From: Candidatus Dormiibacterota bacterium
GTDB lineage: Bacteria; Chloroflexota; Dormibacteria; Aeolococcales; Bog-877
NCBI GenBank assembly: GCA_027313505.1
Contig: DAHVDN010000007.1
Location: 14,110-78,109, forward strand
Direction: 5' to 3'
Length of the DNA stretch: 64,000 bases
Positions 3,489-50,740 of the stretch are shown piece by piece (the first letter of the stretch is position 1; each line of letters opens with the position of its first letter). The translations under genes were made by a program, and so were the position numbers. The notes beneath the pieces were generated by a model that had not been told where the DNA came from, made no database searches, and saw only the letters and a list, made by a program, of their open reading frames with translations.

Positions 3489-4483
3489 GTTCGGTGCGCA
3501 GCCTGCTGGTCGCCAGCCGCCCATTCAGCTGGATAAACACCGGCCTCCCCTTCCTGGCAGCCGCACTTTCTGTGAAGTTATCTGCAAGTCCGACCGTGGT
3601 CGTGGGCACCCTCTACTTTCTGGGTCCGTACAACCTTCTTCTCTACGGGGTGAACGACCTGTTCGACTACCAGTCGGATCGGCTCAATCCTAGGAAGGGG
3701 GGAAGGATCGAGGGTGCCCGACTGGACCCGGGGCGCGGGCGCCTTCTGTGGTTCGCGATCGCGGTCACGAACTTACCTCTGCTGGCGGTAACCGCCGCGC
3801 TAGGGGGTTGGGGGCTGGCAGGGGCTCTGACCGCCACAGTGGCGGCGGCACTCGCCTATTCGACTCCCCCGCTCCGCACCAAGGTGATCCCTGTGCTCGA
3901 CTCGTTGACCAGCTCTTCGCACTTTGTGCTGCCCGCAGTCTGTGGCCTGTTGGCAGCCGGCCTTCCGCTCCAAGAGTTTCCCGGGCGGATCCTCGTCGCA
4001 TTCTTCCTCTGGGGGGCGGCTTCGCATGCTTTGGGGGCGATTCAGGACGTTCGGTTCGACCGTGCCGCCGGGATCGGCTCGGTCGCCACCGCTTTCAGCG
4101 CTCGACCGACCGCCGGGTTGGCCACCGTCACCTATGCGGCCGCTGCGTTGGCTCTCGGCCTCGGAGGTGGGCTGGAAGCACTCGCAGCCGTAGTCGTCAT
4201 CCCTTACGTCCTGCTCGCGGCATCCTGTTTGGTCGGGGATCCGGAACGTCAGTCCCGCCGTGCCTGGCGTGGATTCATGGGGATGAATCTGCTGGCTGGG
4301 TTCTTCATCACCCAACTGCTGCTGCGTCAGTGGGGAGTGGAGCATTTCAGCCCCCTGGACCTGGCCTGGGCTCCCACCGCTGCCGCCGGGGCGATGGTCG
4401 CAAGCATGTGGCTGTGCGACCTGAGTCTGCGCCGGAGGGCAGTCCCCGAACGCCCGGGTCCGACCCCACGGCGACGATCATAG
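3485..4483 (+). CDS. UbiA-family prenyltransferase, probably lycopene elongase (CrtEb/CrtE2/LbtA-like)
   Basis: Polytopic membrane protein with the Asp-rich NDLFDYQSD motif typical of UbiA prenyltransferases. The GTG start at 3485 overlaps the upstream TGA (GTGA). Position immediately after the two cyclase subunits mirrors crtYe-crtYf-crtEb in C50 carotenoid clusters. Confidence 0.7.
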   Translation: MSSVRSLLVASRPFSWINTGLPFLAAALSVKLSASPTVVVGTLYFLGPYNLLLYGVNDLFDYQSDRLNPRKGGRIEGARLDPGRGRLLWFAIAVTNLPLLAVTAALGGWGLAGALTATVAAALAYSTPPLRTKVIPVLDSLTSSSHFVLPAVCGLLAAGLPLQEFPGRILVAFFLWGAASHALGAIQDVRFDRAAGIGSVATAFSARPTAGLATVTYAAAALALGLGGGLEALAAVVVIPYVLLAASCLVGDPERQSRRAWRGFMGMNLLAGFFITQLLLRQWGVEHFSPLDLAWAPTAAAGAMVASMWLCDLSLRRRAVPERPGPTPRRRS

Positions 4484-7004: not shown

Positions 7005-7822
7005 TGGCACCTGCGATCCAGCCATATCTGGATCGGGCGGTCGAAACGACCAATAGGGTGGCCAGAACCTTTGCATTGGCCACACGCCTACTTCCTCGTG
7101 AGGTGCGCCCGGATGTTTACCTTCTCTACCTGGTGTGTCGCCAGCTGGACGACCTGGTCGACTTTCAAAAGCCCGACGCTGAACGGCGTTTGGGCTGGGT
7201 GGCGAGGTGGGCTGAGCGAGGAGAGGTGCGGGGCCCGGAAGCGGAGATCCTGCAACATCTAGCGGATCGCTATCCAACTCTCCCCCGCGATGCGGTCACC
7301 GACTTCTGCGAGGGCCAGCGTCAGGACATGGGGACGCTTGTCGTCGACACTGAGGCCGATCTGGATCTCTATGCCTACCGAGTTGCTGGCACTGTGGGCC
7401 GCCTGATGGCGACAATCCTGGGTGCCGAAACAGAAGCTGCAGACGAGGCATCTCGCGCCCTGGGGATCGCCATGCAGAGAACCAACATTCTTCGTGACAT
7501 CGATGAGGACCTGGCCCGCGGGCGAGTCTACATCCCGGCTCAGGCCCTGGCTATGGCTGGCGTTCAGGACCTTGCCAGGGACGATCGCACGCTGCTGCTC
7601 CGGGTCGAGATTGCAGTCGCGGACCATTGGTACGAGCTGGGACTCCCGGGAAGCTCCCTGCTCAAGCACGGCGGCAGGCAGGTTCGGGCCGCCGGCGTCA
7701 TGTACCGCCAAATTCTGCGCCAGATCGAACGGGAGGGGCGGGGGGTTCAGCGACCGAAGAGGGTCGTGGTCCCATCGCACCGCAAGCTGCTCGGGTTGGT
7801 CCAGGGATTGGTTCAACCTTGA
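7004..7822 (+). CDS. crtB: Phytoene synthase
   Basis: Squalene/phytoene synthase motifs YLLYLVCRQLDDLVD (Asp-rich 1) and RTNILRDIDEDLARGRVYIP (Asp-rich 2). The GTG start at 7004 overlaps the crtI TAG by 1 nt; an alternative GTG lies at 6992. Confidence 0.85.
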   Translation: MAPAIQPYLDRAVETTNRVARTFALATRLLPREVRPDVYLLYLVCRQLDDLVDFQKPDAERRLGWVARWAERGEVRGPEAEILQHLADRYPTLPRDAVTDFCEGQRQDMGTLVVDTEADLDLYAYRVAGTVGRLMATILGAETEAADEASRALGIAMQRTNILRDIDEDLARGRVYIPAQALAMAGVQDLARDDRTLLLRVEIAVADHWYELGLPGSSLLKHGGRQVRAAGVMYRQILRQIEREGRGVQRPKRVVVPSHRKLLGLVQGLVQP

Positions 7823-7906
7823 TCGCGAGAGGCCCCGGTTCTCATCGGGCCACCGGCGGCCGCTGACACCGACCCCGGTCGCGGTAAGGCCCGAGCCCCA
7901 ATAGGA

Positions 7907-9031
7907 TCAGGCCGGCTGGCGCCCCTCGACCGCGCCCAAAAGGTCGCCGATCGTCAGGGGGACCGCCGCGGGAGCGACTCCGACCTGCTGACTGGCCACG
8001 GACTGCCCCGGCACCAGGGTGGAGCACAGTTCACGCGGGGTGGGCGTGACTGGGCTCACCGCGTCCGTGAGGAACCGACGCATTTTCAGAGCAAGCCAGC
8101 CTGCCGCGCCCGCGGGCAGGGCCACCATCAGATCGAGGATCTGCACCTCGAGCCCGAGGGCTAAAACCCCAGAGATGGGAAGCCCGGCCAGGGCGAGCCC
8201 TCCCGCCCACCACACCTGTGACGTCCCGAGGCCGCCAACGCCCTGAATGGGCAGGGCGAACAGCAGGGTGCGCACCGCCAGAGCGAGCCAAACCTGCCAT
8301 AGGCTGAGATCGGCCCCCAGCGCCCAGAATAGGCAGAGATATTCCACCGCTGCCATAAGGCGCGCTCCCAGCGTCGCGGCGATTAGGGCAACGACTACCC
8401 GCCATCCGGTCAGCTCATCCAGCGCCGCCTCCGCCCTGACCGCAAACGGCTGACAGTGCCGGATCCGCCCCACCCGGGACAGTAGCCAGCGGCGCGAAGG
8501 CTTGACGAAGACCGCCGCCATGGAGAAGCAGAGAACCGTGGCGAGCCCGATCGAGGCAAGGCGCACGGATGTCGGCAGCCGCACCCCCGCCAGATCGGCG
8601 GAGACCAGGAGAATTAGCGCCAGACTAGCCACGTCCAGCAGGCGGGAGATGAGGGCGCTGCCCGTGCCGCGGCTCAGGCTGGACCGAAGGTTTGTGCGCG
8701 AAAGCACGACGAATGTGGCATCGCTGCCCGGGCCAGGTAGCAACTGTCCAGCCCCCCAGCTCGCTGCGGTCACACCCAGTACTGCCCCGATCGATCCTCG
8801 TCCGAGCAGGGTGCGATAGCGCCAAGCGCGCATGGTGACATATCCGCAACCTACCAATGCTCCGACCGCGAACAAGCCCCAGGAGAGGTGCGTCAGCGCC
8901 TGCCCGACCCGCTCAAGAGAGATCTTGGAGATCACCAGCTCTAGGAGCCCAGCCCCTACCAGCGTTCCCACTAGGAGGCGGTTACGGGGTTTCCTCAAAG
9001 CGCCAGCCAGGCGCGCCGGGACTCCATTCAT
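7907..9031 (-). CDS. Polytopic membrane protein, lysylphosphatidylglycerol-synthase-TM / flippase-like (UPF0104) family
   Basis: Eight or more predicted TM helices, rich in G/A/L. The architecture resembles flippase-like domains often found beside GT2 enzymes. The family assignment is by resemblance only. Confidence 0.55.
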   Translation of the reverse strand: MNGVPARLAGALRKPRNRLLVGTLVGAGLLELVISKISLERVGQALTHLSWGLFAVGALVGCGYVTMRAWRYRTLLGRGSIGAVLGVTAASWGAGQLLPGPGSDATFVVLSRTNLRSSLSRGTGSALISRLLDVASLALILLVSADLAGVRLPTSVRLASIGLATVLCFSMAAVFVKPSRRWLLSRVGRIRHCQPFAVRAEAALDELTGWRVVVALIAATLGARLMAAVEYLCLFWALGADLSLWQVWLALAVRTLLFALPIQGVGGLGTSQVWWAGGLALAGLPISGVLALGLEVQILDLMVALPAGAAGWLALKMRRFLTDAVSPVTPTPRELCSTLVPGQSVASQQVGVAPAAVPLTIGDLLGAVEGRQPA

Positions 9032-9112
9032 CGCCCACAGTGTGGCGTCCCTGTCCCCAATCCTCCTTAGTTGGAGCTGAGACTCCAGTGCTTCGGGAGG
9101 GAGATTCCTCGG

Positions 9113-9661
9113 CTACCTCTCCTCCGACACCATGGACTCCGGAACCCCATTGATCTGGTAGGGCAGATCGCTGATGTCGAAGTAGCGCACCGGCTTGCGC
9201 ATCCGCTTGGCGATTCCCACCTGCACCTTCAGCCCCAAGGACAGGTCCCCAAACACCCACATCTCGTCACAACGAGCTATCAGGTTGTTCATGGCCTCGC
9301 GCACCAGATCCTTGGGCACAGTGTGGAGCAGGTAGTAGTCGAAGAGCATGAAGGGAGTGACCGGGACTCGGCCATCGTCGAGCACGTACTTGGTCAGTTG
9401 CTGGCGCCAAAAGAAGTTCCGGTTGCTCATGGCGACATAGACCAGCGGCTTCGGTCGGCGGAGCGTTCGCTCCGCCTGCTCCGCCGGGCTGGCCCTAGGA
9501 GTGGGAGTGAAGATAAGCTCCAAGATGTCATCCGCCGAGCGGGCTGCACCCACCTTGGGTGCAGTTCCGACCTCTCCCTCGCCAGCTCCTTGGGGTTCGC
9601 CCGAAGAGGGGTCCCCAAAGGGCTGGGAGCCGTCGCCACGCGCGCGCTGCTTTGCACCCAA
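9113..9661 (-). CDS. Hypothetical protein with a nucleoside 2-deoxyribosyltransferase-like C-terminal domain
   Basis: The C-terminal 120 aa (LVYVAMSNRNFFW...CDEMWVFGD...GIAKRMRKPVRYF) resembles NDT/Rcl-like folds (YxAG..., GyA..gKPV). The N-terminal 50 aa are low-complexity and the start is uncertain. There is a 12-nt gap to the upstream UDG gene. Confidence 0.45.
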   Translation of the reverse strand: MGAKQRARGDGSQPFGDPSSGEPQGAGEGEVGTAPKVGAARSADDILELIFTPTPRASPAEQAERTLRRPKPLVYVAMSNRNFFWRQQLTKYVLDDGRVPVTPFMLFDYYLLHTVPKDLVREAMNNLIARCDEMWVFGDLSLGLKVQVGIAKRMRKPVRYFDISDLPYQINGVPESMVSEER

Positions 9662-9673
9662 GATTTTCTGGGA

Positions 9674-10396
9674 TTATACGCAATCCAAAGGAGCGATCCG
9701 GGAACTTGCCAAGAGCTCGACCAGCCGACTCAGCCACCCCAGCGCCTTTGCCAGCTGCGCCCTGTGGGACGTTTGATTCAACCAGTGGCTGGCACCGGAA
9801 GGGTGGGGCAGCGGTAGGACCAGCAATCGACCAGGAGGGCGTCGCCATCCCGCCAGCTCTTCGGAAGCTTCCTCTCCACCTTCCCAGAACACTCGACCTA
9901 TCAGCTGTTCCATGGGTCGCGCTCCGATGAAGCGCCCGATCGCAAGTTGACCGACCGCAATCAGCAACAGGGGGCTTAGCAGCCTCAGCTGGTCGTCGAG
10001 GTGGGGCCGACAGAGTTCGACCTCTGTCGCGGACGGCCGTCGGTCCCCCGGTCCGGCGCCGGCAGCTCCGGGAAAGCACTTGGTCACAGAGGTGATATAG
10101 ACGGCTCGTCGAGCCGTAGTCTCGTCGCCAAGGCCGGCCTCCGCGAGCCAGCGAAACAGCTGTCGCCCCGCCCGACCGCTGAACGGCAGCCCACTGTGCT
10201 GCTCGAGTCGACCCGGCGCCTGGCCGATCAGCATCACCTCACTCAGGACCGGACCCGATAGGACGGGGCGGACGGTCGGGATCAATCCACAGTCCTGGCA
10301 CCGTCGGCAGCTCATGATCCTTCGGTGCAGCTGCTCAAGCTGAGCCCCTCGTACCGGAGCGGGGCCGGCTGTCTTTGGAACTTGAAACGGAGGCAC
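9674..10396 (-). CDS. Uracil-DNA glycosylase, family 4 (4Fe-4S type)
   Basis: CRRCQDCGL... Cys cluster, followed by GQAPG (GEAPG-like active-site motif), HPS and SHW regions. Confidence 0.8.
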   Translation of the reverse strand: MPPFQVPKTAGPAPVRGAQLEQLHRRIMSCRRCQDCGLIPTVRPVLSGPVLSEVMLIGQAPGRLEQHSGLPFSGRAGRQLFRWLAEAGLGDETTARRAVYITSVTKCFPGAAGAGPGDRRPSATEVELCRPHLDDQLRLLSPLLLIAVGQLAIGRFIGARPMEQLIGRVFWEGGEEASEELAGWRRPPGRLLVLPLPHPSGASHWLNQTSHRAQLAKALGWLSRLVELLASSRIAPLDCV

Positions 10397-40132: not shown

Positions 40133-41104
40133 TCACTGAGGCTCCAGCCCGCGCGCCCGCAGCTCCTCGATGAGGGCGGGGAGTACCTTGAGCACATCCC
40201 CCACGATACCCAGATCACTCAGCTTGAATATGGGTGCGTCCCGATCTCGGTTGATTGCCACAATGTGCCCTGCACTCTTCATTCCCACCGTATGCTGCAT
40301 CGCTCCGCTGATACCACAGGCAATGTACAGGTCCGGCTTCACCGTCTTACCGGTCTGCCCCACCTGACGAGCGTAGGGAACCCAACCCGCGTCCACCACC
40401 GCTCGGCTGGCGCCAACTGCCCCCTGCAGCTGACTGGCGAGCTGGTCTAAGAGAGCGAAGTTTGACGGCTCCTGGAGTCCCCGACCTCCGCTTATGACCA
40501 CCCGGGCCTCCTCCAGCTTCGGCCCCGAGGTTGGGGCCACGACCGACTCCAGTCGGCGCGCACCCAAAGGCGACCCGGCAGGCAGGGACACCTCGACCAA
40601 CCGTGGTGGTGGTCCGCCAAAACCGACGGCCTGGTAGGACTTGGGGCGGACGAGGACGCAAGGGGTGGGACCACGGACCTCAGTGGTCACGTTCAAGGTC
40701 GCGCCGAAGATCGAGCTGCACACCGAAAATCCGCCCGCTGCCGTCGAGATACCGGTGGCGTTGGCTACCACGGTGGAGCCCAACTGAGCGGACAGGTGCC
40801 CACAGATATCTCTGCCGTCGTAAGTCGCGCCGAAAATGAGCAGATCGGGGCGATGCTGCTCCACCAAGCTGGCGAGCACCGCCGCATGGGGCTGCGCGAC
40901 GTGCGTGCCGTAAGCCTCGTCCGTGCCCAGATAGACGGTCGTGGCTCCGAACTCCCCCAAGGTCTCTGTAACCAATCGAGCCTGGGGATTCAAGACCACC
41001 GCTTCCAGCTCCCCCCCGAGGCCCCTCGCCCCTGTCATCACCTCGAGGGAGATGGGGCTCACCTCCTCCTTTGCGAGCTCTACGAATACCCAAATTTTGC
41101 TCAT
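40133..41104 (-). CDS. etfA: Electron transfer flavoprotein subunit alpha
   Basis: C-terminal FAD-binding region DLYIACGISGAMQHTVGMKSAGHIVAINRDRDAPIF. Confidence 0.9.
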   Translation of the reverse strand: MSKIWVFVELAKEEVSPISLEVMTGARGLGGELEAVVLNPQARLVTETLGEFGATTVYLGTDEAYGTHVAQPHAAVLASLVEQHRPDLLIFGATYDGRDICGHLSAQLGSTVVANATGISTAAGGFSVCSSIFGATLNVTTEVRGPTPCVLVRPKSYQAVGFGGPPPRLVEVSLPAGSPLGARRLESVVAPTSGPKLEEARVVISGGRGLQEPSNFALLDQLASQLQGAVGASRAVVDAGWVPYARQVGQTGKTVKPDLYIACGISGAMQHTVGMKSAGHIVAINRDRDAPIFKLSDLGIVGDVLKVLPALIEELRARGLEPQ

Positions 41105-41105
41105 T

Positions 41106-41885
41106 TCAGATCAACTTCAGCTCGGCCAAATACTCGGCGATGACCAGGGCCGCAGAGCCGTCGTCCTCCACGATCCGCCCGGCGTCGCGTTGAGGTGCCG
41201 GCTGGATCAGCGTTACCCGCTGGTGACCCTGCTCCTCGGCGATTAGATCAGCGTCCATGCCCAGCCCGCTGAGGTCGAGTCGTTCCAGCGGACGACCCCG
41301 GGCACCCATGATCCCCTTCAGCGTGGGATATCGAGGCTCATTGATGCCGCCGGTCACCGTCACCACGGCCGGGAGGTCGGCCTCCACCACGTCGTGGCCA
41401 TTCGGCGTCTGGCGGTGGATCAGCACCGTCCTGCCCTCGACCTCCAGCTTCTTGGCAAACGTGAGTGATGGCCACCCCAGCAGCTCGGCGACCGCAGCTG
41501 GAACGGTGCCTGTGTAGCCGTCGGTTGATTCGGTGCAGGCGATGACCAGCTCGGCGGCCGAGCTCCTCACGGCCGCGGCCAGCGCTCGGGCGGTGGTCAG
41601 CGCATCCGCACCGGCCAGCAGTGGATCGCAAATGTGGATGCCGGACGCCGCCCCCATCGCCATGGCTTTTCGAACCACGTCGACGGCCTGCTCGCCCCCC
41701 ATCGAGATTGCAACCACCTCCCCGGCAGTGGCCTCTGCGATACGCAGCCCCGCCTCGACGCCATATGCGTCTCCGGGGTCCAACACCACCTCTCCTCCTT
41801 CTCGAACCAAGCGGTTGGTGCTGAGATCCAGTTTCCCAGGCGCCGACGGGTCAGGAATCTGCTTCACAAAGACGGCTATCTTCAA
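41106..41885 (-). CDS. etfB: Electron transfer flavoprotein subunit beta
   Basis: MKIAVFVKQIPD...; stop is 1 nt from the etfA start. Confidence 0.9.
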   Translation of the reverse strand: MKIAVFVKQIPDPSAPGKLDLSTNRLVREGGEVVLDPGDAYGVEAGLRIAEATAGEVVAISMGGEQAVDVVRKAMAMGAASGIHICDPLLAGADALTTARALAAAVRSSAAELVIACTESTDGYTGTVPAAVAELLGWPSLTFAKKLEVEGRTVLIHRQTPNGHDVVEADLPAVVTVTGGINEPRYPTLKGIMGARGRPLERLDLSGLGMDADLIAEEQGHQRVTLIQPAPQRDAGRIVEDDGSAALVIAEYLAELKLI

Positions 41886-42056
41886 TACGAAAACGTCCCC
41901 TTAACGCAGTCGAAGCGGGCGGCTAGGGTCAATCTTAGCCCTACCGGAAGGGAGCCCGGCCGCACTTCAGTGGGAGGGGCTTGGTCCGGTCGGCCTTATA
42001 ATCGCCAGGCCCAAGGTGGGCTGGTCAGGTCCGTCAGCTCAAGGCGGATCGCCATT

Positions 42057-42134
42057 GGCCCCGTGGTGTAGCTGGCCTAACACGCCACCCTGTCAAGGTG
42101 GAGATCGGCGGTTCGAATCCGCTCGGGGTCGCCA
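42057..42134 (+). tRNA. tRNA-Asp (anticodon GUC)
   Basis: GGCCCCG acceptor, D arm GTGT/ACAC, anticodon arm CCACC-CTGTCAA-GGTGG, T loop TTCGAAT, discriminator G plus CCA. Confidence 0.9.
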
Positions 42135-42145
42135 CCTCCTCGCAC

Positions 42146-42712
42146 CTACGGCACTGGGTCGGGGTAGATTCGAAACCCGGCGAGGACTCGATGCCGGAGA
42201 CTTTCGTAGAAGGGCAGCGCGGCCCCGTCAGCGAGAAGGTCCAGCCGTTCCCCGCCCGCGGCCGTCAGCGCACTGAGCAGAAGGGTACGCCCCAGGCCGG
42301 TTCGGCGACGATGAGCAGCGACAAGGAGAAGGGCACAGTAGGCCTGTATCTCCCCATCTGAGAGAACCTGGCAGACCCCGATCACCTGTTCTGAATCCCT
42401 CGCCACCATGGTTGTCGATCCGGGACTCGTAAGTGCCCTGAGAGCACGCTCAGGGTCTGTCGGCAAGCTGAGCCACCGCTCGGCGGTGCAGAGCTCTAGC
42501 ACGCCTGGCAAATCCTGAGGGACGACCGGCGCGATCTCCCAACGGGGTGCCGCTAGGTCAGCAGTCGTGCATCGATGTGGATCGGTTATGGCAGCGTCTC
42601 CCCGCGCAACGCACGCAACGCACGCTACGCCCAGCGATTGTAGAGACGGATTATAGACAAATTTCCCTCGTTTACCGCTCCAAACAGAGCGCTCGGTGAA
42701 CCAAGGGGCCAC
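42146..42712 (-). CDS. GNAT-family N-acetyltransferase
   Basis: C-terminal acetyl-CoA-binding motif AHRRRTGLGRTLL (Q/RxxGxG/A); start uncertain. Confidence 0.6.
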   Translation of the reverse strand: MAPWFTERSVWSGKRGKFVYNPSLQSLGVACVACVARGDAAITDPHRCTTADLAAPRWEIAPVVPQDLPGVLELCTAERWLSLPTDPERALRALTSPGSTTMVARDSEQVIGVCQVLSDGEIQAYCALLLVAAHRRRTGLGRTLLLSALTAAGGERLDLLADGAALPFYESLRHRVLAGFRIYPDPVP

Positions 42713-42870
42713 CCGGTTGCCTAATGGTCTAGCTGGCGGGTCGGGCGCCTAATCGAGGGGCGACCGAACCATGGTCCCGGGTCCCGCGGTGCTGCCGACG
42801 CACCAGCTTGTCCCCGCCTGCCCGCTCCCCGTGTCCGTCGACGGTCCGAACGGAAGCGTGCTGTTCTCCC

Positions 42871-43089
42871 TCAGGGGCCCACCTCGGTAACGAGCCTTAG
42901 GGCCTGTTCAGGGCACGCCGCCACGGCACGTTTGGCCAGCTTCGACTGCTCAGGGTCGTAGTCAGGGGATGCAAGCAGGACGGGGAAACCCCAGTCATCC
43001 AGATCGATCAGGCGCGGCGCGATCAAGGCGCATATCCCATGCCCCTTACAGCGAACCGCATCGACCAGGAGCTTTCCCATCAGCGCCAC
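42871..43089 (-). CDS. Small ferredoxin (single-cluster 3Fe-4S/4Fe-4S type)
   Basis: 72 aa; CKGHGICA...ACPEQA cluster ligands. Start overlaps the NuoF-like gene end by 10 nt. Confidence 0.7.
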   Translation of the reverse strand: MALMGKLLVDAVRCKGHGICALIAPRLIDLDDWGFPVLLASPDYDPEQSKLAKRAVAACPEQALRLVTEVGP

Positions 43090-44453
43090 CCCGCACCACT
43101 TGGGGTAGGCACGCGGAAGGTCGGTAGATGCGATTTTCGATCGCAGGGGCCGCGCCGAATGTGACGCTCCACATCATCGGCGAAGACTGCCAAGGCATAC
43201 TGGAGCAATAGCGCAGCCCCGTCCGGATGATGGCAGGCCCCGCGATCGGCGAAAGTGGCTGACCGACGTAACAGCTGGCGCACATCACGTCGACTGACCC
43301 TTCCGAAGGCCAGCTCCGACATCCCCTCGGCGAGCCTGGGCAACCCGAATATGCAGGGGCCACACTGGCCGGCGCTCTCGCTCGCCAGATACCCCAGCAG
43401 CCGTGCCGTCTCCGCGAGGCCGCAGGCCTCCCACGGTAGGATGCCGAGTAGGCCGCACCCCAAAGACAATCCCCTAGCGAGCAGTTGGTCGCGGGCGAGC
43501 GGCTGGTCCCAGGCATCCCTGCCATCTACCCATCGCCCGGCATAACCGCCCAACAGCACCGCTCGAGGAGGGGCATCAAGGCCCGCCCGATCGGTCAGCA
43601 GCTGGCCCACAGTCACCGCCCCTCCGACCTCGAAGACCCTGGGCCCCGGGGGGGTAGCGCCGGCCAGTGTCACCAGGGTCGACCCCGCGGCCCCACTGGT
43701 TCCTGCCAACCTGAACCACCAGGGGCCGCGGCGGGCGATCAGGGCCAGGTGACCCATGGTCTCGGCGTTATGCAGAAGCGTCGGTCGGCCGTGGATTCCT
43801 GCTCGCGCGGCGCGCCGGTCGGTGAGCGGGCGAGCGTCGCCGTCCTCCAGGAAGTGAATGATGGCGCTGGACTCGCCAGCCACGTATCGAGACGGGCCGT
43901 AGGAGATGTCCATGCGAGGCTCGGTCAGACGGGCGCGGCGGCGCTCCTGCACCGCGTTCTTGAGACTAGTGATGGCGCTCCTGGACTCCCGATGGACATG
44001 GATGATCACCTGGTCGGCGTTGACTGCCTCCGCTGCCACCACCGCTCCGTCAAGTACCAGGTGGGGACGCAGCGCCATCAGAGTCCGATCCTTGTGACTT
44101 GCAGGCTCGCTTTCTGAGCCGTTCACCACCACCAAGGGACTGCCTCCCCGCGCCGCCACCGTGCGCATCTTGACGGCCGCGGGGAACCCAGCACCCCCGC
44201 GGCCCTGAAGCCCGCTCTCCTCGACGACCCGGCGTATGTGGGCGGCGTCTCCCAATCCGGGCAGCGGTCCGAGACGGTCTAGGTGATCTACTAAGGACTC
44301 CATACCGGCCACGGCCTTCGGCCCGGCCAGGATGCGACTCCCGGCCTCACCGACCCCGGCCAGCAGCTGGTCCGGATTGCTGGCGAGCTCATCCGGAACA
44401 ACTGGGGTTTGTGGATTGGTCAAGGACAGCAAGTCGGTGTGGACACCACTCAC
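43080..44453 (-). CDS. NuoF-like NADH-binding FMN/4Fe-4S flavoprotein (complex I 51-kDa subunit paralogue)
   Basis: GRGGAGFPAAVK (NADH-binding GRGGAGFPTG), VVNGSESEPASHKDRTLM, and ESAGQCGPCIFG (N3 cluster ESCGxCxPC). Confidence 0.85.
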   Translation of the reverse strand: MSGVHTDLLSLTNPQTPVVPDELASNPDQLLAGVGEAGSRILAGPKAVAGMESLVDHLDRLGPLPGLGDAAHIRRVVEESGLQGRGGAGFPAAVKMRTVAARGGSPLVVVNGSESEPASHKDRTLMALRPHLVLDGAVVAAEAVNADQVIIHVHRESRSAITSLKNAVQERRRARLTEPRMDISYGPSRYVAGESSAIIHFLEDGDARPLTDRRAARAGIHGRPTLLHNAETMGHLALIARRGPWWFRLAGTSGAAGSTLVTLAGATPPGPRVFEVGGAVTVGQLLTDRAGLDAPPRAVLLGGYAGRWVDGRDAWDQPLARDQLLARGLSLGCGLLGILPWEACGLAETARLLGYLASESAGQCGPCIFGLPRLAEGMSELAFGRVSRRDVRQLLRRSATFADRGACHHPDGAALLLQYALAVFADDVERHIRRGPCDRKSHLPTFRVPTPSGAGWR

Positions 44454-45163
44454 AAATATGCGTCCCCATGACCGGGATAGGAGGTGGCAGCGCTGGGTTG
44501 CCCGGGACTCGAGGGCGGCTCCAACCGGCTCGCGCCAAACCGAGTGGCCACCACGACCAGCAGCACACCTCCGGTGACCACGTACATCGGTCGCAGCACT
44601 CCGGTGTCACTCCCTGCCAACACACTGTGCAACCAAGCCAAAGCCACCGCCAGGAGTGCCAACCGATGAACTGCAAGCCAGTGGCGCCCGAAAAAACGGC
44701 CCGCCAGGGCAGCGGTAATCCCCATCGCGGCGCCGAGATACAAACTCACAGAACCCAGACCGACCGCGAACGGACGGTACGTCGCCTTTCCAGGTGCGAT
44801 CACCCCCAGCCATCCGACGCCGGCAAATGTATCCAGGGCGAATACGATGACGTGCCCCGCAACCAGGATGCAGGCAGCCACTGCCAAGGCGACATGAAGC
44901 CGCAGCAGGACTGCTGGATGGAGGACCGGTCGCCGCCATCTCCATGGGTGACGGAACCAAGTACCGACCAGAGCGAGAGCGACGATGTCCAGGTAGGCTG
45001 CCAGTCCCAGCCCCCGTCCCAGGATCCAGGGCATCATCCGGTCGTGCAGTGCGGGCTCCACCAGCGTTATGAGGAGTGCAGCAGTTACTGCCCCACCAAG
45101 TGCCGCGACCACCGCGGATGCGCCGTGGTGAGGGACCCGAGGCAAGCTGCCACCGGCCTTCAC
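44450..45163 (-). CDS. Ferric-reductase-domain (MsrQ/YedZ-like) di-haem b membrane protein
   Basis: Six TM helices. Two helices each carry a His pair 13-14 residues apart (LHVALAVAACILVAGHV; HRLALLAVALAWLHSV). ATGA overlaps on both sides (45160-45163 and 44450-44453). Confidence 0.7.
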   Translation of the reverse strand: MKAGGSLPRVPHHGASAVVAALGGAVTAALLITLVEPALHDRMMPWILGRGLGLAAYLDIVALALVGTWFRHPWRWRRPVLHPAVLLRLHVALAVAACILVAGHVIVFALDTFAGVGWLGVIAPGKATYRPFAVGLGSVSLYLGAAMGITAALAGRFFGRHWLAVHRLALLAVALAWLHSVLAGSDTGVLRPMYVVTGGVLLVVVATRFGASRLEPPSSPGQPSAATSYPGHGDAYL

Positions 45164-46146
45164 GCGCGACGCCAGACTAGGAATGGAGCCATGGCCCTGC
45201 TGATGGCGAGACCGCCACCGTCGTCAATCCACAGCGCGGCCAGCCCTCGCTCGTCGGAGAACCGTTGCACCCCCTCGGACCCTTCAAGGAAGAGGGATTT
45301 GCTCCAGACCTCAGCGATAGCCGGATCCTTGTCGATGACCGTCACGGCTCTCAGGCCAGATCCTCCTGGCAGGCCGGTTCGAGGGTCGATCAGGTGGTGG
45401 ACCAGGGTTCCTCCCGCTTCCCAGTGACGCAGGCGGATCGAGGATGTGGCACATGCTCGATCAGATAGCTCCAACACCGCCACCGGCTCGCTGTCTCCAA
45501 AGGGGTCCTCGACTCCGACTTTCCAGAGGTCACCGGCGGGTGCTCTGCCTGCGCAGTAACAGTCTCCGCCCGCCTCCACGAGATGGTCAGGGGCGACTGC
45601 CCTCAGCCTCTGGCTTGCCCAGCGAACTGCAAGGCCCTTCCCAATACCGCCGAGATCGACTGGGCGGCCACCTAGCAACACAGTCCTTCGGACCCGTCGA
45701 AATCGTGGTCGCCACTCGCCCATGGGACGCCTCGCCAGTGGGCTTCGCACCCCGGTCTGAACCGGACCGGAACCGAAGGGCAGGGAGTGGTCGTAGCCCA
45801 GGCGCGTTAGGTCCCCCATGATGCGAGGGTCGAAGCGGCCCTGGGTAAGCAGGTAGGCCCGATAGGCCTCCGAAATGGCCCGAAAGCATGGGGGTGGGAC
45901 CCTGCGCCAGCTGTCGGGGGCGGCATTCGCCAGCATAAGTGGGCTGGTCGGGACGAACCGGGTACAGCTCTTCTCTACCTCCTCAAAGACCTTCAGCGCA
46001 TGATCGACCGCGCGCTCCGGAGTCGCTCTGTCGGCGCTTGCTAGAGCCCGGATGCTGATGCTGCTGGCCATTGCGACGGCAGTCCCGGAAACCTCCACCG
46101 GTGCCCTGTCAGGGAACGGCAACCCCAGAGGCTCCAGTCGTCGCAT
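45160..46146 (-). CDS. apbE: FAD:protein FMN transferase
   Basis: ApbE-fold motifs (GTAVAMASSISIRA near the N-terminus; DLGGIGKGLAV; VEAGGD). No signal peptide is visible from the ATG at 46146; the longer track ORF (to 46428) is R/P-rich upstream. Confidence 0.85.
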   Translation of the reverse strand: MRRLEPLGLPFPDRAPVEVSGTAVAMASSISIRALASADRATPERAVDHALKVFEEVEKSCTRFVPTSPLMLANAAPDSWRRVPPPCFRAISEAYRAYLLTQGRFDPRIMGDLTRLGYDHSLPFGSGPVQTGVRSPLARRPMGEWRPRFRRVRRTVLLGGRPVDLGGIGKGLAVRWASQRLRAVAPDHLVEAGGDCYCAGRAPAGDLWKVGVEDPFGDSEPVAVLELSDRACATSSIRLRHWEAGGTLVHHLIDPRTGLPGGSGLRAVTVIDKDPAIAEVWSKSLFLEGSEGVQRFSDERGLAALWIDDGGGLAISRAMAPFLVWRRA

Positions 46147-46522
46147 GCACCGTTGGAGCGGCGGGTAAGGGGGGCAGCGGGGAGCCCGCCAAGTGAGCGA
46201 TCTGCCGTTCGTCGGAGTCGATGCGCTCCTGCAACCGCTGCACCTGCACCTGAGTCTTGAGCCACGCCGCCTGAGCCGCGGTCTGAGGTGAGGCTCCGTG
46301 GGGGGTGACGTTGGCCCCCGGTGTCGACGAGGCCGCCCAGCTGATCGCGCCCATCGTGGCCAACCCGGTGGCGGCGGCGGCCGCCCACGGAGTGATTCGG
46401 CGACGGAGAGCGCGGCGCCATCGCTCACTCCGTAGCGCCGCCGCTCTCAGGTCAGTTGTCGCCGCCACTTCCACCTCCGTCCCCGCTCGAGGAGCCGCTG
46501 GCGCCGGTGGTGGTATGGACAA
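46109..46522 (-). CDS. Tat-signal mini-protein A with C-terminal VHATTGASG (putative ApbE flavinylation site)
   Basis: RRRITPWAAAAATGLATMGAISWAASS Tat-like signal, a coiled-coil-like middle and a C-terminus PTVHATTGASGVAVP. It is a paralogue of the next ORF with different synonymous codons at the motif. Its 3' end overlaps the apbE start in another frame; its own start is uncertain. Confidence 0.45.
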   Translation of the reverse strand: MSIPPPAPAAPRAGTEVEVAATTDLRAAALRSERWRRALRRRITPWAAAAATGLATMGAISWAASSTPGANVTPHGASPQTAAQAAWLKTQVQVQRLQERIDSDERQIAHLAGSPLPPLPAAPTVHATTGASGVAVP

Positions 46523-46772
46523 TTGGAGCCGCAGTCGCCGCTGGAACCGGCCGCTTGCGCATGGCGACCGCTTCAGCGGAGAGCCTCTTTGCCTCGGCGG
46601 CCAGCCGCTTCGCCTCCGCGGTGATCACTTGCTGCTGAGTCAGGGCATGTTGACTGGAAGCCGCCGGGCTTGCAGCGGCAGTCCCGGGCGCCGCTGCCAA
46701 TGCAGCGGCCCCACCAGCCGCTGCCCCGACCACAGCGGCGGCCGTTGCGATCAAGCGACGTCGAGAAACCAT
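46452..46772 (-). CDS. Tat-signal mini-protein B with C-terminal VHTTTGASG (putative ApbE flavinylation site)
   Basis: MVSRRRLIATAAAVVGAAAGGAAALAAAPG (S-R-R-x-L-I Tat motif), QQQVITAEAKRLAAEAKRLSAEA helix, APIVHTTTGASGSSSGDGGGSGGDN tail. Confidence 0.5.
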   Translation of the reverse strand: MVSRRRLIATAAAVVGAAAGGAAALAAAPGTAAASPAASSQHALTQQQVITAEAKRLAAEAKRLSAEAVAMRKRPVPAATAAPIVHTTTGASGSSSGDGGGSGGDN

Positions 46773-47058
46773 GCCTGCGACCTCCTACTTCTATGAACCC
46801 TGCTTAGCGTAGCCGTCGATCGATGACGAAGCGGTGACGAGTAGATGAGAGTTGTCTTATTCCAAAGTGCCAGGGCCGAGTGACGAAAGGCGTCGGTGGA
46901 CGCCGCTAGGCATCAGCAAATCAAGCTAAAAAGATGGGCATTTGATGAGCGCCATCGTGGGGGAAGTCCAGCTAGGATCGGCTTGCGACCGCCCTTCGCT
47001 GTTTCCCAGAATGACTCCAGTGCCGCCGGGTGCGCGATCCATCGTCTATGGTGGGACG

Positions 47059-47466
47059 ATGCTCACTGGCACGGCCGGACTGCGTACCCTGCTGCGCCGG
47101 GCCGCCGGCGTTGGGGCCGGGCTCGCAGCAGTGGTCGTGGTAAGCGCCGCAGCTGCGGCGACTCTCGGACCCAGCTCGAACAGCAGCCACATCGCCCAGC
47201 GGCAGGTTGTCCTAGGGGGCGCAGCGCCGGCGCCGGGCCAACTTGCTACCGCCCCAAAGCCACGGGTCGGCGTCGACAAGGGGACTGCGGTGCGGGTGGT
47301 GCCGCCGTTCGAGCCAGTTATCCAAAGTGAGCCCTCCCAGCCCGTGGAGACAGGTTCAGACACCTCAGGAGGGACCGGCCAGTCGAGCGACGCCACCCCA
47401 AGCCCGGAGTCGAGCGGGTCCTCCCCTGGTCAATCCACACCGAGTCCATCCGGCGCTGACGGGTAA
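47059..47466 (+). CDS. Secreted low-complexity protein upstream of the sensor kinase
   Basis: MLTGTAGLRTLLRRAAGVGAGLAAVVVVSAAAAA signal, then a Pro/Ser/Gly-rich C-terminus. Stop lies 5 nt before the HK start. Confidence 0.4.
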   Translation: MLTGTAGLRTLLRRAAGVGAGLAAVVVVSAAAAATLGPSSNSSHIAQRQVVLGGAAPAPGQLATAPKPRVGVDKGTAVRVVPPFEPVIQSEPSQPVETGSDTSGGTGQSSDATPSPESSGSSPGQSTPSPSGADG

Positions 47467-47470
47467 GCGT

Positions 47471-48943
47471 GTGGCCGAATCACTAGTCCTGGAACCCACT
47501 GAACGTACAAGTCGGCGGTGGCGGCCGGGGCTGGCGGTCCGGTTGGCGGCCTTGCATGCCGGAATTCTTACAGTGGTGCTGGTCGCGGTAGGCATCCAGG
47601 TGGACAGAATTGTGGCCGGTAATCTCCTCGCCAGTGTCAACACCGGTCTGGTAGAAGAGCTCGCCGAATACGGCAACGCGGCCGCCCACAGGGTTAACGG
47701 CACCCCCTTGGTGACCTTCGATCAGAGCTACCTGCGTTCCCACCAACTTCCAAGTGGGCACGCCGTCCTGCTTGCCGTAGCAAGAGGTGCCGCGCCCCCC
47801 CGTGGTGCGATCCTGGGAAGCTCGGGCTCGAATCAAATCCGGAGCTCTCCGCTGGTGGCAAACTGGTTGAACCACATTCCAAATCAAAGCCTTTTCGGCC
47901 AGATCACGGCCGGCGGCGTGAGCTACCGGGTGTTGGTCAGCCCTGTGCTCAGCGGCGGCCAGGTCGTCGGCGCCTTCATCGCAAGTGCTGACCTGACCGG
48001 TGTGTCTCAGGCGGTAGCCAGCCAGCTGGTGGCCGTCATCGTGGAGGGAGCGGTTGCCCTGATCGCTGCCGTCCTGACTGCCTACCTGCTGCTGCGCCGA
48101 GTCTTGAGGGTGGTGGACGGGGTCACCACCACCGCTGCGGATATCAGCGAATCCGACCTCACACGCCGCTTAGCGTACCGGGGCCCGGATGACGAGGTGG
48201 GCCGTCTGGCACGAACCTTTGACCGAATGTTGGAACGGCTCTCTGCTAGTTTCGCCGGCCAGCGACGTCTACTCGCGGATGTCTCCCACCAATTGAGGAC
48301 TCCGCTGACTGTCATCAGGGGCCACCTAGAGCTCCTGCTACGCGACGGGACCTCCGATGCTGACGAGGTGGCCGGCACTCTCGCCGTAGTTCTCGACGAG
48401 TTGGATGGGACGGCCCTTCTCGTGGATCGCCTACTCTTGCTGGGACGAGCATTGGAGCCAGAGTTTCTCGAGGAGGAGCCAATCGCGTTGGGCTCATTCC
48501 TGGCAGACATCCTCGATGCCGGGGAGGTCCTGGGCGACCGGAACTGGGTGTTGCGACCGGTCCCCCCCGTGGGCGTGTTCGGGGACCGCACCAAGCTCCG
48601 CGGTGCATTGCTGAACCTGATAGACAACGCCGTCAAGGCCACCAAGCCCGACGACACGATCGCGCTTGAGGCACGGATTTCCGGCCATGTCCTCACGCTG
48701 ACCGTCAGCGACACCGGCGTAGGGATCGAGCCCGAGATCCGAGACTCGGTCTTCGATCGATTCGTAGCCGGGAGGGCTGGGGGGCCACGCGGAACGGGGC
48801 TTGGCCTGGCAATCGTCCGCGCGGTCGTCGAGGCGCACGGTGGTCAGGTCACTCTGGAAAGTTCGCCTGGCCGAGGGTGCAGTATCGAGATCACCCTGCC
48901 CGCCAACCGAATAATCCCCTCCGGTGAAGGGGCCAGCAGTTGA
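47471..48943 (+). CDS. Two-component sensor histidine kinase
   Basis: Two TM helices and a periplasmic loop, a HAMP domain, H-box LADVSHQLRTPLT, and G-boxes DTGVGIE / GTGLGLAIV. GTG start at 47471. Confidence 0.85.
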   Translation: MAESLVLEPTERTSRRWRPGLAVRLAALHAGILTVVLVAVGIQVDRIVAGNLLASVNTGLVEELAEYGNAAAHRVNGTPLVTFDQSYLRSHQLPSGHAVLLAVARGAAPPRGAILGSSGSNQIRSSPLVANWLNHIPNQSLFGQITAGGVSYRVLVSPVLSGGQVVGAFIASADLTGVSQAVASQLVAVIVEGAVALIAAVLTAYLLLRRVLRVVDGVTTTAADISESDLTRRLAYRGPDDEVGRLARTFDRMLERLSASFAGQRRLLADVSHQLRTPLTVIRGHLELLLRDGTSDADEVAGTLAVVLDELDGTALLVDRLLLLGRALEPEFLEEEPIALGSFLADILDAGEVLGDRNWVLRPVPPVGVFGDRTKLRGALLNLIDNAVKATKPDDTIALEARISGHVLTLTVSDTGVGIEPEIRDSVFDRFVAGRAGGPRGTGLGLAIVRAVVEAHGGQVTLESSPGRGCSIEITLPANRIIPSGEGASS

Positions 48944-49617
48944 AAATTCTGATCACTGAAGACGACGCGCGGATTGCCAACTTCGTCGCGAAGGGCCTGC
49001 GGGCCGAGGGGTACGTGACCGTTGTGGCTTCGACTGGGGCCGAGGCTCTACTCCTCATCCAAATCCGGGACGAGAGCCCCGACCTGGTGCTGCTCGACCT
49101 CGGCCTGCCCGACCAGGATGGCCTCACGGTTCTGCGCAAGATGCGTGGAGTTCGACCAGAGTTGCCCGTTATCATCCTCACCGCTCGGCGCGAGCTGGGT
49201 GAGAAGGTCCGGGGCTTAGACGCCGGGGCAAGGGACTACGTGACCAAGCCATTCGCCTTCGAGGAGTTGCTGGCACGAATCCGGGCGACTCTGCGCGACC
49301 GTGACCAGGAGACTTTGACCACCCTGGTGGTCGGCGATCTTCGGCTTGACCTGCAGACTAAGATTGCCTGGCGCGGGGAGCGCCGGATTGAGCTCGCTCG
49401 GCGAGAGTGGGCGCTCCTGGAATTACTCATGCGCAACCCGACCAAGCTGCTGTCTCGAATGCAAATTCTCAACCAGGTGTGGGACTATGGCTTCGACCCC
49501 GGCAGTAACGTGGTGGATGTCTACGTGGGCTACCTACGGCGCAAGGTCAACGGACCCGGCGAGACGCAGCTCATCCAGACGGTCCGAGGCGCGGGGTACC
49601 GACTGACGCCACCCTGA
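48940..49617 (+). CDS. OmpR-family response regulator
   Basis: Receiver domain (DD...D...K pattern) plus a winged-helix C-terminus ending GAGYRL. TTG start overlaps the HK stop (TTGA). Confidence 0.9.
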   Translation: MKILITEDDARIANFVAKGLRAEGYVTVVASTGAEALLLIQIRDESPDLVLLDLGLPDQDGLTVLRKMRGVRPELPVIILTARRELGEKVRGLDAGARDYVTKPFAFEELLARIRATLRDRDQETLTTLVVGDLRLDLQTKIAWRGERRIELARREWALLELLMRNPTKLLSRMQILNQVWDYGFDPGSNVVDVYVGYLRRKVNGPGETQLIQTVRGAGYRLTPP

Positions 49618-50155
49618 GTTGATGCGGATTTTTGGCCAGAAGGGTCCCCCAATCTCACACATTTGCCGCCCCGGGATCCGAAATCGCAGGACCCCTGGGG
49701 TAGGTGGGGGAGTGTCGGGAAGGCTGGGGTTTAGGCGTCCTCCAAGGGGGCCTGTCCCAAACGATCGATTGATTGGATTGAGGGAGTGTTGGCACTCGAA
49801 AGTCAGCGTGGCGAACCACAACCCTGGCCCCTTTTGTGAGGTGACGTTGCACCACCTGAAGTGAGCGGTCGGCGGAGCTCGCGTCGAGGCTCGACCATCG
49901 ATGACGTAGATGACCCGATGGCAAGCCGATCTGGTCATTTGAGCTGAGCGCGGAACGGAGGTGCGCCGCAGCAAGTTGGTGCTCGGTTCCGCGGAGAGCA
50001 CAGCCTCTTTGCCGACGCATCATGTCCCAGCTCGTTCTCGGCGGACCACTTCGGTTAAGAGAACTCTCATCGCAAGGTCATCTGTCGTTCACGGCGCAGA
50101 CGCAAGCTAAACGTATGCCTCGGGCTTCCGGGACACGCAAATGTGGAGGATTGAG

Positions 50156-50740
50156 ATGAAGGACACGCTGATGAGGTGGCCCCTGATTGGGGCCGCCGCA
50201 ACCGCTGCCGCTGTGGCAGGCGCCGCCGCGGTGGCAGCTGCGGGAGCGCTACCGACCCCCGCGGCACCCACTCTTCACAACGTGAAGACCGCAAGTTACA
50301 CTGCGAACTGCCCAACAGGACTGCCCGGTGCGGCTGACACTGCTGCGCTCAGCTGGGTCGATGTCCACGCCGGCGGGACCGGACCGGCCGGAGTAGTCAA
50401 GACCGAGGCCGATGTCGAGAAGGGAGTCTGCGTCTTCGACGTTCGGACCATGGCTCCTAATGGGACGATCTGGGTCGTTCAGGTACGCCGAAGTGCCGTA
50501 GCCGCAAGCGAGGTCGTACTCTCTGCGAACCTGGCCGAGGGCTCGCCCGCCGCCATCCCGGCCACCAGTCCTGCGCCGTCGGTCGCGCCCACCCCGGAGG
50601 CGAATAACACCCCGCAACCAGCTGAAACGCCCCAGCCCGAGGAGAGCGCCAAGGCGACAGAGACTCCGCAGGCCCCTGAAAGCCCTCAACCGGACGCCAC
50701 CCCTAAGCCGAGCCAGTCGCCGGGTGGTAGCGACAATTAG
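50156..50740 (+). CDS. Secreted protein with signal peptide and Pro/Glu/Thr-rich C-terminal tail
   Basis: GGAGGA RBS 7 nt before the ATG. MKDTLMRWPLIGAAATAAAVAGAAAVAAAGA signal, a globular middle with two Cys, and a PQPAETPQPEES tail. Confidence 0.6.
   Translation: MKDTLMRWPLIGAAATAAAVAGAAAVAAAGALPTPAAPTLHNVKTASYTANCPTGLPGAADTAALSWVDVHAGGTGPAGVVKTEADVEKGVCVFDVRTMAPNGTIWVVQVRRSAVAASEVVLSANLAEGSPAAIPATSPAPSVAPTPEANNTPQPAETPQPEESAKATETPQAPESPQPDATPKPSQSPGGSDN

Follow-up and report, generated by a model that had tools for sequence, protein, structure and literature searches.

Introduction

To our knowledge, flavinylation by ApbE is a known bacterial way to place flavins outside the cytoplasm, the natural substrates found so far are all folded domains, and secreted ApbEs have been the main concern of surveys. 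Here we describe a gene cluster in a 64,000-nucleotide (nt) stretch of DNA from a Candidatus Dormiibacterota bacterium (contig DAHVDN010000007.1; the whole stretch is hereafter the window), in which two small genes, B and A, stand next to an apbE gene and encode proteins with a common ApbE-like motif in their C-terminal tails. We think it rather probable that A and B are anchored proteins whose disordered C-terminus is a natural flavin tag, loaded with flavin mononucleotide (FMN) by the ApbE of the cluster and fed with electrons outside the cytoplasm.

Among known systems, the MsrQ-like flavinylation cluster comes nearest; its proposed role is to move cytosolic electrons to a flavinylated extracytosolic protein, and 31 of these clusters were reported to include a NuoF-like gene (Meheust et al. 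2021, eLife, PMC8238504). As in those clusters (PMC8238504), the apbE of the window adjoins the gene for a probable ferric-reductase/MsrQ-like di-haem protein, and a NuoF-like protein (PF10589) would form the cytoplasmic module for reduced nicotinamide adenine dinucleotide (phosphate), NAD(P)H. Unlike them, the present cluster has no FMN-binding-domain gene, the presumed substrate being a domain-less tail on a small anchored protein; its ApbE lacks a signal peptide, a separate ferredoxin is always present and the membrane protein of the window falls below detection by Pfam PF01794. The 2021 survey removed ApbE and FMN-bind genes without signal peptides (PMC8238504), and this discarding of signal-less genes may explain why the present variant is undescribed.

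In the logic of the substrate, A and B come closest to the engineered flavin-tag and to FMN_red proteins with their flavinylated C-terminal extension. In the flavin-tag, as would be the case in A and B, a short terminal peptide is the entire recognition element for ApbE, and termini work best (PMC12052999). The tag keeps a leading Asp, whereas in the natural tails that position is taken by His, Thr, Lys, Gln, Val, Ser or Ala, and a Pro-rich lead-in (PPxV) is conserved; the tag is a laboratory tool, of which the tails of A and B would be the natural counterpart. In FMN_red proteins the reported flavinylation site lies on a C-terminal extension without structure (Huang et al. 2024, mSystems, PMC11334425), and in this disordered placement of the motif they resemble A and B. 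However, the FMN_red tail returns to a conserved flavin-binding site within its own folded protein, and A and B have no such domain.

Other flavinylated proteins compare in part. The FMN_bind substrates (NqrC, RnfG, Listeria PplA) and those of the DUF2271 and DUF3570 families share with A and B the [S/T]GA[S/T] acceptor, an apbE-adjacent gene and a predicted extracytoplasmic location. Their site lies inside a folded domain of ~120-420 residues that cradles the flavin, whereas that of A and B lies on a tail predicted to be disordered, with no domain match. Klebsiella pneumoniae has a cytoplasmic ApbE whose substrate is a soluble fumarate reductase (cited in PMC12052999). That enzyme is signal-less like the one described here and acts in the cytoplasm, as ours would; its substrate stays there, whereas A and B carry an N-terminal export/anchor segment. 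The membrane protein of the cluster finds its best structural matches in NOX5, SpNOX and STEAP, sharing six helices and His pairs spaced i/i+14 and i/i+13 on helices 3 and 5. Unlike NOX proteins and ferric reductases it has no fused dehydrogenase domain for flavin adenine dinucleotide (FAD) and NADPH, and the separate NuoF-like protein and ferredoxin would supply the electrons.

Results

Coding status of genes A and B

Gene B (46452..46772, minus strand) encodes 106 residues from an ATG with AGGAGG 8 nt upstream. Gene A (46109..46468, minus strand) encodes 119 residues from GTG 46468. The mechanical open reading frame (ORF) of A begins at a TTG (46109-46522), but GTG 46468 is the likely start, because GGAGG stands 5 nt before it and because the gene callers' start in four relatives, which gives products of 116-120 residues, agrees. 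B and A share 17 nt, which they read in different frames. The acidic Gly-rich end of B (GDGGGSGGDN) and the GGAGG ribosome-binding site and GTG of A are the same bases (46452-46480, minus strand), and the GGD-x-stop ending of B is retained even in loci with a much longer B tail (L015, L025, L030). Since the end of B is encoded by the bases that start A, part of its conservation may serve translational coupling and not the B protein.

Both ORFs are predicted by gene callers in related metagenome bins, some labelled Candidatus Dormibacteria. The relatives used were P0001 (B) and P0002-P0005 (A), two of them named Candidatus Dormibacteria by NCBI, and their contigs were compared. The ratio of nonsynonymous to synonymous substitution (dN/dS, Nei-Gojobori) among the closer loci is 0.12-0.22 for B and 0.17-0.30 for A; it is higher against the most distant locus, where dS is saturated. 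Between loci L001 and L004 the differences at codon positions 1/2/3 number 5/1/25 in B and 5/4/19 in A. These comparisons indicate that A and B are real protein-coding genes under purifying selection, and so bear out, with dN/dS of 0.12-0.30 and a third-position excess in both ORFs, what an earlier reading of the DNA (the sequence-only reading) had proposed. The third-position excess in the annotated frames rules out a non-coding repeat, and it likewise led to rejection of an antisense ORF at 46305-46796 (plus strand), the substitutions sitting at third positions of the minus-strand frames.

That the region is a non-coding leader or a repeat, or that the ORFs regulate apbE as upstream ORFs and have no protein function, would be in keeping with the small size and low complexity of the ORFs, with the failure of any Pfam or NCBIfam model to match them and with the abundance of spurious ORFs in high-GC DNA. 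We nevertheless regard such an origin as verging on the negligible, given dN/dS well below 1 with substitutions concentrated at third positions, an anchor-helix-linker-tail architecture that is kept across bins labelled as two phyla while DNA and linker length vary freely, and the lack of an Rfam family. Pfam (down to E<=10) and NCBIfam gave no match for A, B or the A-type proteins of Acidimicrobiia, which fall outside FMN_bind PF04205, NqrB/RnfD, DUF2271, DUF3570, Flavodoxin_4 and FMN_red. Rfam has no family in 42500-47500, thus no FMN riboswitch or leader; a sigma-70 promoter scan found nothing, and terminator-like sites were no more frequent than expected by chance.

A word-indexed search of 5.8 billion proteins returned one match for B and four for A. 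A full hidden Markov model (HMM) search of 1.84 billion representative proteins with a Dormibacteria-type profile gave 13 matches at E<=0.001. Two long repetitive matches (990 and 768 residues) were set aside, the anchor region alone being matched. Ten other small matches (101-140 residues) were inspected, and in all of them the tail stands at the end. Because just 13 matches were found among 1.84 billion representatives, the small tail proteins appear to be a rare, uncharacterised family.

The common tail of A and B

A and B have in common the peptide AAP(I/T)VH(T/A)TTGASG. It is encoded in A by GCC GCT CCA ACG GTG CAT GCG ACG ACT GGA GCC TCT GGG (~46124-46162) and in B by GCG GCT CCA ATT GTC CAT ACC ACC ACC GGC GCC AGC GGC (~46494-46532), exactly as the sequence-only reading had quoted. 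Four of the 13 codons are identical, seven differ synonymously (Ser TCT versus AGC included) and two differ non-synonymously. Both ORFs contain TGAS, which fits the [S/T]GA[S/T] core with its Ser/Thr acceptor described in PMC8238504 and PMC12052999. In B this core lies at 46497..46508 (minus strand; ACC GGC GCC AGC), with Ser92 (AGC 46497-46499) as the predicted FMN acceptor; in A it lies at 46127..46138 (minus strand; ACT GGA GCC TCT), and the predicted acceptor, Ser114 (TCT 46127-46129), is five residues before the stop codon.

BLASTP of A against B matches the VH(T/A)TTGASG stretch alone (E=0.01, a single comparison), and a profile-profile comparison of the two families aligns the tail over 15 columns (E=1.8e-10); by these measures the resemblance of the tails exceeds chance. 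With the tail removed, the alignment is reduced to a 28-column helical stretch (probability 80%, E=1.4e-5). The description of the two ORFs as paralogous therefore stands for the tail and for the architecture, which is clearly common to both, while common descent beyond the tail is plausible but weakly supported. The Ser codon is mostly AGY in B-types and mostly TCN in A-types, which suggests an old divergence.

Distribution of the tail across loci

An alignment of the membrane protein of the cluster, scanned against one genome per species, gave 46 loci, mostly in bins labelled Acidimicrobiales/Acidimicrobiaceae and a few in Dormibacterota. The tail itself was surveyed in 53 related loci with apbE and the membrane protein, all from uncultured organisms and in bins labelled Dormibacterota or Acidimicrobiia. 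Of the 53, 52 have an A-type ORF that stops just upstream of apbE, and the remaining one starts at a contig edge. The absence of the ORFs where apbE and the membrane protein are conserved, which the sequence-only reading had named as the outcome that would speak against it, is thus not what is seen: they are conserved alongside. The A stop typically falls ~30-100 nt before the start of the ApbE alignment, and in the same 52 loci the protein carries a tail of the form [ST][GR]A[ST] that lies 1-6 residues before this stop.

The A-type consensus is PPxV-x-x-T-[TS]-G-A-S, followed by GVP, PAKP or similar. TTGAS occurs in A-types in 38 DNA spellings that use all four Gly and all four Ala codons, so that the peptide is kept while the DNA drifts, as had been argued from the codons of the window. 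Most loci have Ser as the acceptor and five have Thr, an alternation expected of an ApbE site. The A-type tails comprise 42 distinct forms, 39 with [ST]GA[ST] and three with TRAS.

B-type copies are found in about a third of the loci (18 of 53 by strict motif count and a few more by eye; orthologues in L001-L008, L010-L013, L015, L017 and others). In them the tail continues into an acidic Gly-rich extension ending GGD-x. They are always accompanied by a short A-type with His six residues before the acceptor (-6). Acidimicrobiaceae-type loci have a long A-type only, with a Pro/Ala/Thr-rich linker of 100-180 residues. On this distribution, the A-type appears to be the universal partner of the cluster and the B-type does not.

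Three loci carry labels that we do not trust (L010, L011 and L020: Candidatus Micrarchaeaceae archaeon, Candidatus Nanopelagicaceae and Verrucomicrobiia). Because their clusters are near-identical to Dormibacteria-labelled loci, the labels probably reflect mis-binning or mis-classification in a set of soil metagenome-assembled genomes. Two Acidimicrobiaceae loci have a tandem duplication of the module, L023 (1-2600; 3300-7120) and L026 (1-2550; 3120-7110), in which a second copy, consisting of the end of apbE, the membrane protein, the NuoF-like protein and the ferredoxin, lies directly upstream of the first.

The ApbE of the cluster

The apbE gene (FAD:protein FMN transferase family; 45160..46122, minus strand) encodes ~320 residues that match PF02424 (E=9.5e-44). 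Its most upstream plausible start, TTG 46122, stands ~14 residues before the PF02424 domain and is the gene callers' choice in L001, L003, L004 and L005. With this start apbE overlaps the 3' end of A by 14 nt, as the sequence-only reading had it; with the alternative in-frame starts GTG 46098 or ATG 46071 there is no overlap. At most ~20 residues precede the ApbE domain. The window enzyme has no signal peptide and no lipobox, and no hydrophobic in-frame stretch lies upstream of apbE in the window or in 50 of the 53 loci; the stretch apparent in the remaining three is either the opening strand of the ApbE domain or lies out of frame within gene A. An extension of apbE upstream to 46428 was rejected, that frame encoding an Arg/Pro-rich, non-hydrophobic peptide over gene A.

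GGIGKG (the FAD site) and HHLIDPRTG (with the catalytic His) align with solved ApbEs. The C-terminal motif [AG]D[AG]LST, which we take to be the Mg2+-binding site of ApbE, corresponds to AEVx[ST]K in the ApbEs of 42 of the 53 loci, always in the absence of a signal peptide. The window enzyme scores 49 bits against a cut-off of 498 bits for the NCBIfam ApbE equivalog. By these features the ApbE of the cluster belongs to a distinct signal-less clade, and AEVx[ST]K may mark a catalytic variant that co-evolved with an Asp-less tail.

Among the listed loci the A-type ORF and apbE never share a frame (the gap modulo 3 is 0 or 2, never 1), which could reflect common ancestry or the avoidance of read-through fusion. 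A programmed frameshift that joins A to ApbE, giving an anchored extracytoplasmic enzyme with the motif in its own linker, would be compatible with this frame relation, with the short distance from the A stop to the ApbE alignment (commonly ~30-100 nt) and with an ApbE that otherwise has no export signal. We consider it very improbable, since apbE has its own candidate starts (TTG, GTG, ATG), gene callers separate the two genes and the widely varying gap length is unlike a fixed recoding site; no slippery site or conserved RNA structure was seen, although none was searched for, and Rfam was empty.

Electron-transfer partners

The conserved order of the six genes is B, A, apbE, membrane protein, NuoF-like protein and ferredoxin, with genes that abut or overlap, and it is kept in five distinct syntenic metagenome loci (L001, L003, L004, L006, L008). 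The six-helix membrane protein (44450..45163, minus strand; 237 residues), whose gene has apbE directly upstream in related loci, appears to be of the ferric-reductase-domain/MsrQ-like kind and is predicted to bind two b haems. Its His72, His90, His104, His166 and His179 are invariant in 51 sequences. The candidate haem ligands are the pairs His90/His104 (i+14) and His166/His179 (i+13), at what we take to be the haem-ligand spacing of ferric-reductase domains. The window protein itself has no Pfam match even at E<=10; PF01794 (Ferric_reduct) is matched by 14 of 51 homologues, and some homologues are named YedZ/MsrQ or ferric reductase by their sources. An AlphaFold2 (AF2) model has six long helices (mean predicted local distance difference test score, pLDDT, of 84). 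The top Foldseek matches are the transmembrane domain of NOX5, SpNOX and STEAP2, with weak E-values (0.03-0.3) and a probability of ~1; a PDB sequence search with the membrane-protein profile gave nothing meaningful. Judged by loop charge in our own reading of the sequence, both termini would be cytoplasmic.

Downstream, in almost every locus long enough, follow the genes for the NuoF-like protein and the ferredoxin. The former (43080..44453, minus strand; PF01512 and PF10589) is a NAD(P)H-binding FMN/[4Fe-4S] protein that scores far under the NuoF equivalog cut-offs and is not the NuoF of complex I. The latter (42871..43089, minus strand; PF13459 Fer4_15) is a small single-cluster ferredoxin whose gene closes the operon.

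Within ~8 kilobases in four syntenic loci, and among those neighbours in the window that were scanned, no gene of the FMN_bind, DUF2271 or DUF3570 type was found; the FMN_bind negative covers the neighbours of the cluster and not the whole window (Pfam scan of 80 window ORFs, best 25 families). The A-type tail, together with that of B in the window, is the only conserved partner of the cluster with an ApbE-like site. That no flavinylation-domain gene was found nearby favours the tail as candidate ApbE substrate.

Anatomy and topology of the small proteins

The N-terminal part of B has SRRRLIA and a hydrophobic segment rich in Ala and Gly; next come an Ala-rich helix AEAKRLAAEAKRLSAEA and the motif AAPIVHTTTGASG, and the acidic Gly/Ser tail SSSGDGGGSGGDN follows. 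In A, a conserved Arg-rich N-terminus RSERWRRALRRRITPW is followed by a hydrophobic segment; a helix spans residues 64-93, and after it come a Pro-rich linker and the tail AAPTVHATTGASGVAVP. A-types have in common an Arg-rich flank, a hydrophobic segment often ending AWA or AWV, a conserved amphipathic helix, the linker and the tail. Long Pro/Ala/Thr-rich linkers are typical of extracytoplasmic segments. The n-regions of the window proteins, SRRRLIA in B and RRRITPW in A, are followed by weakly hydrophobic h-regions, and RR is found near the h-region in about 43 of 46 A-types (hand count); several B-types have a basic residue after the h-region. Export by the twin-arginine translocation (Tat) pathway is possible on these features, but Arg-rich n-regions are not diagnostic of Tat in high-GC genomes.

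Five to eight Arg in the N-terminal flank immediately precede the sole hydrophobic segment, and an Arg flank so placed predicts an N-in/C-out topology. The tail might instead be flavinylated and stay in the cytoplasm, with FMN set between the ferredoxin and the inner haem as part of the input module. A cytoplasmic site would explain why ApbE lacks a signal in the 53 loci, and cytoplasmic ApbE-substrate pairs are known (PMC12052999). The predicted N-in/C-out topology and the long linkers nevertheless point outside, the flavin of known MsrQ-like systems is outside (PMC8238504), and the NuoF-like protein and ferredoxin already complete a cytoplasmic input. We judge this placement distinctly unlikely.

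Neighbouring genes

Upstream and divergent from the cluster lies a three-gene neighbour (46942..49617, plus strand), which encodes a small anchored protein (46942-47466, plus strand), a HAMP/HisKA histidine kinase (mechanical ORF 47243-48943, plus strand; probable start near 47470) and an OmpR-type response regulator (48940-49617, plus strand). This trio likely regulates the operon. It adjoins the cluster in loci of both the Dormibacteria type (L003, 4842-7482) and the Acidimicrobiaceae type; in the Acidimicrobiaceae loci L018, L027, L031, L043 and L049 it stands downstream of the ferredoxin, at ~7160-9950. Its small signal-anchored protein has a conserved VV.PSRPVI stretch, and in Acidimicrobiaceae it ends in a Thr run and an acidic Gly-rich tail (TTTTTRPG..GGDx), similar to the B-type but without GAS.

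Just beyond the response regulator, ORF 50141-50740 (plus strand) encodes 199 residues with a signal-like N-terminus WPLIGAAATAAAVAGAAAVAAAGA and a repetitive Pro/Glu/Thr/Gln-rich C-terminus ending GGSDN. It has no Pfam match and would be another small secreted or anchored low-complexity protein. Downstream of the ferredoxin (40133-42712, minus strand) are genes for a GNAT acetyltransferase, electron-transfer flavoprotein beta and alpha, and an FHA-domain protein. The same order occurs in L003 (11873-14325), but because L001, L004 and L008 have other downstream neighbours, these genes are probably local synteny and not part of the system.

Discussion

The comparison adds to the sequence-only reading the signal-less ApbE, the NOX/MsrQ-like protein with its di-haem His pairs, the NuoF-like protein and ferredoxin, and the distinction between a universal A and a B present in a third of loci. 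Evidence from the literature that a tail of this kind could be an ApbE substrate can be summarised as (i) ApbE achieves full flavinylation of a seven-residue motif placed at the terminus of a protein; (ii) cytosolic ApbEs exist; (iii) replacement of the motif Asp by Ala has a minor effect on flavinylation (all PMC12052999).

We propose that ApbE would take FMN from FAD and attach it through a phosphoester to the Ser of the tail. Loading would most likely be cytoplasmic, because the ApbE of the cluster has no signal peptide. A and B would then be exported or inserted in the membrane, possibly via Tat, with the C-terminus outside. Electrons would pass from NAD(P)H to the FMN/[4Fe-4S] centres of the NuoF-like protein, to the ferredoxin, to the two b haems of the NOX/MsrQ-like protein, to the tethered FMN on A (and B) and finally to an extracytoplasmic acceptor.

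Several points weigh against this proposal. The published flavinylation site is D-x-x-[S/T]-G-A-[S/T], with an Asp called strictly conserved (PMC12052999), and the tails lack it. Both window ORFs have His at this position (-6 from the acceptor); among the 42 distinct tails it is Thr in 18 and His in 16, then Lys, Gln, Val, Ser or Ala, and Asp in none. The earlier claim of a match to the ApbE acceptor consensus thus holds for the core and fails for the full motif. Three loci read TTRAS for TTGAS, a Gly to Arg change with codon CGC (L035 ~3659-3700, L053 ~3764-3811, L054 ~3725-3766); should such tails be modified all the same, this ApbE clade can do without the Gly of the core. The ADALST position of the window ApbE reads AEVWSK (D to E, T to K; about 45300-45320), and the activity of such an enzyme could differ from that of canonical ApbEs.

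A second group of points concerns export and structure. A cytoplasmic ApbE and an acceptor site outside together demand that a flavinylated chain be exported, and the literature searched describes no ApbE substrate that is exported after flavinylation. Tat-type n-regions, which the sequence-only reading had ascribed to both ORFs, are seen in the window proteins, but B-type orthologues often lack the twin arginine, showing RSR, KR or none. The AF2 model of A, with helices at 2-47 and 64-93 and disorder from residue 94, is of low confidence (pLDDT 58), and as modelled FMN on a disordered tail would have no obvious binding pocket.

The missing Asp, the altered metal motif of ApbE, the three TRAS loci and the lack of a flavin-holding domain would suit a tail that is not flavinylated at all. 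A and B would then be real anchored proteins whose tail serves as a docking peptide for the cytochrome, as a pseudosubstrate or regulator of ApbE, or as a C-terminal sorting or processing signal. However, a [S/T]GA[S/T] core in which Ser and Thr alternate as acceptor is the site on which ApbE acts, the ORF is linked to apbE in 52 of 53 loci and no other ApbE substrate is encoded nearby; moreover, the effect of Asp-to-Ala is minor and terminal 7-mers are good substrates (PMC12052999). We therefore consider an unmodified tail unlikely, and retain flavinylation of A and B as the preferred explanation.

A more specific version of this explanation is that domain-less flavin tags combine a signal-less AEVxSK ApbE, an Asp-less Pro-rich motif, cytoplasmic loading, export with the cofactor already attached, as in the Tat-inserted Rieske protein, and a membrane-tethered swinging flavin. 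Such a flavin would carry electrons from the NOX-like di-haem protein to acceptors within reach of the linker (up to ~180 residues). We put this whole combination forward tentatively, as possible but doubtful.

If the tails are flavinylated, a bare terminal peptide would suffice as an ApbE substrate in nature and not only in engineered tags, and flavin loading could precede export. The natural pair of an Asp-less tag and its enzyme might then be of use for protein labelling. Poorly known soil and peat lineages (Dormibacterota, Acidimicrobiia) would own a compact route for electrons from NAD(P)H to the outside, with possible roles in iron reduction or redox defence.

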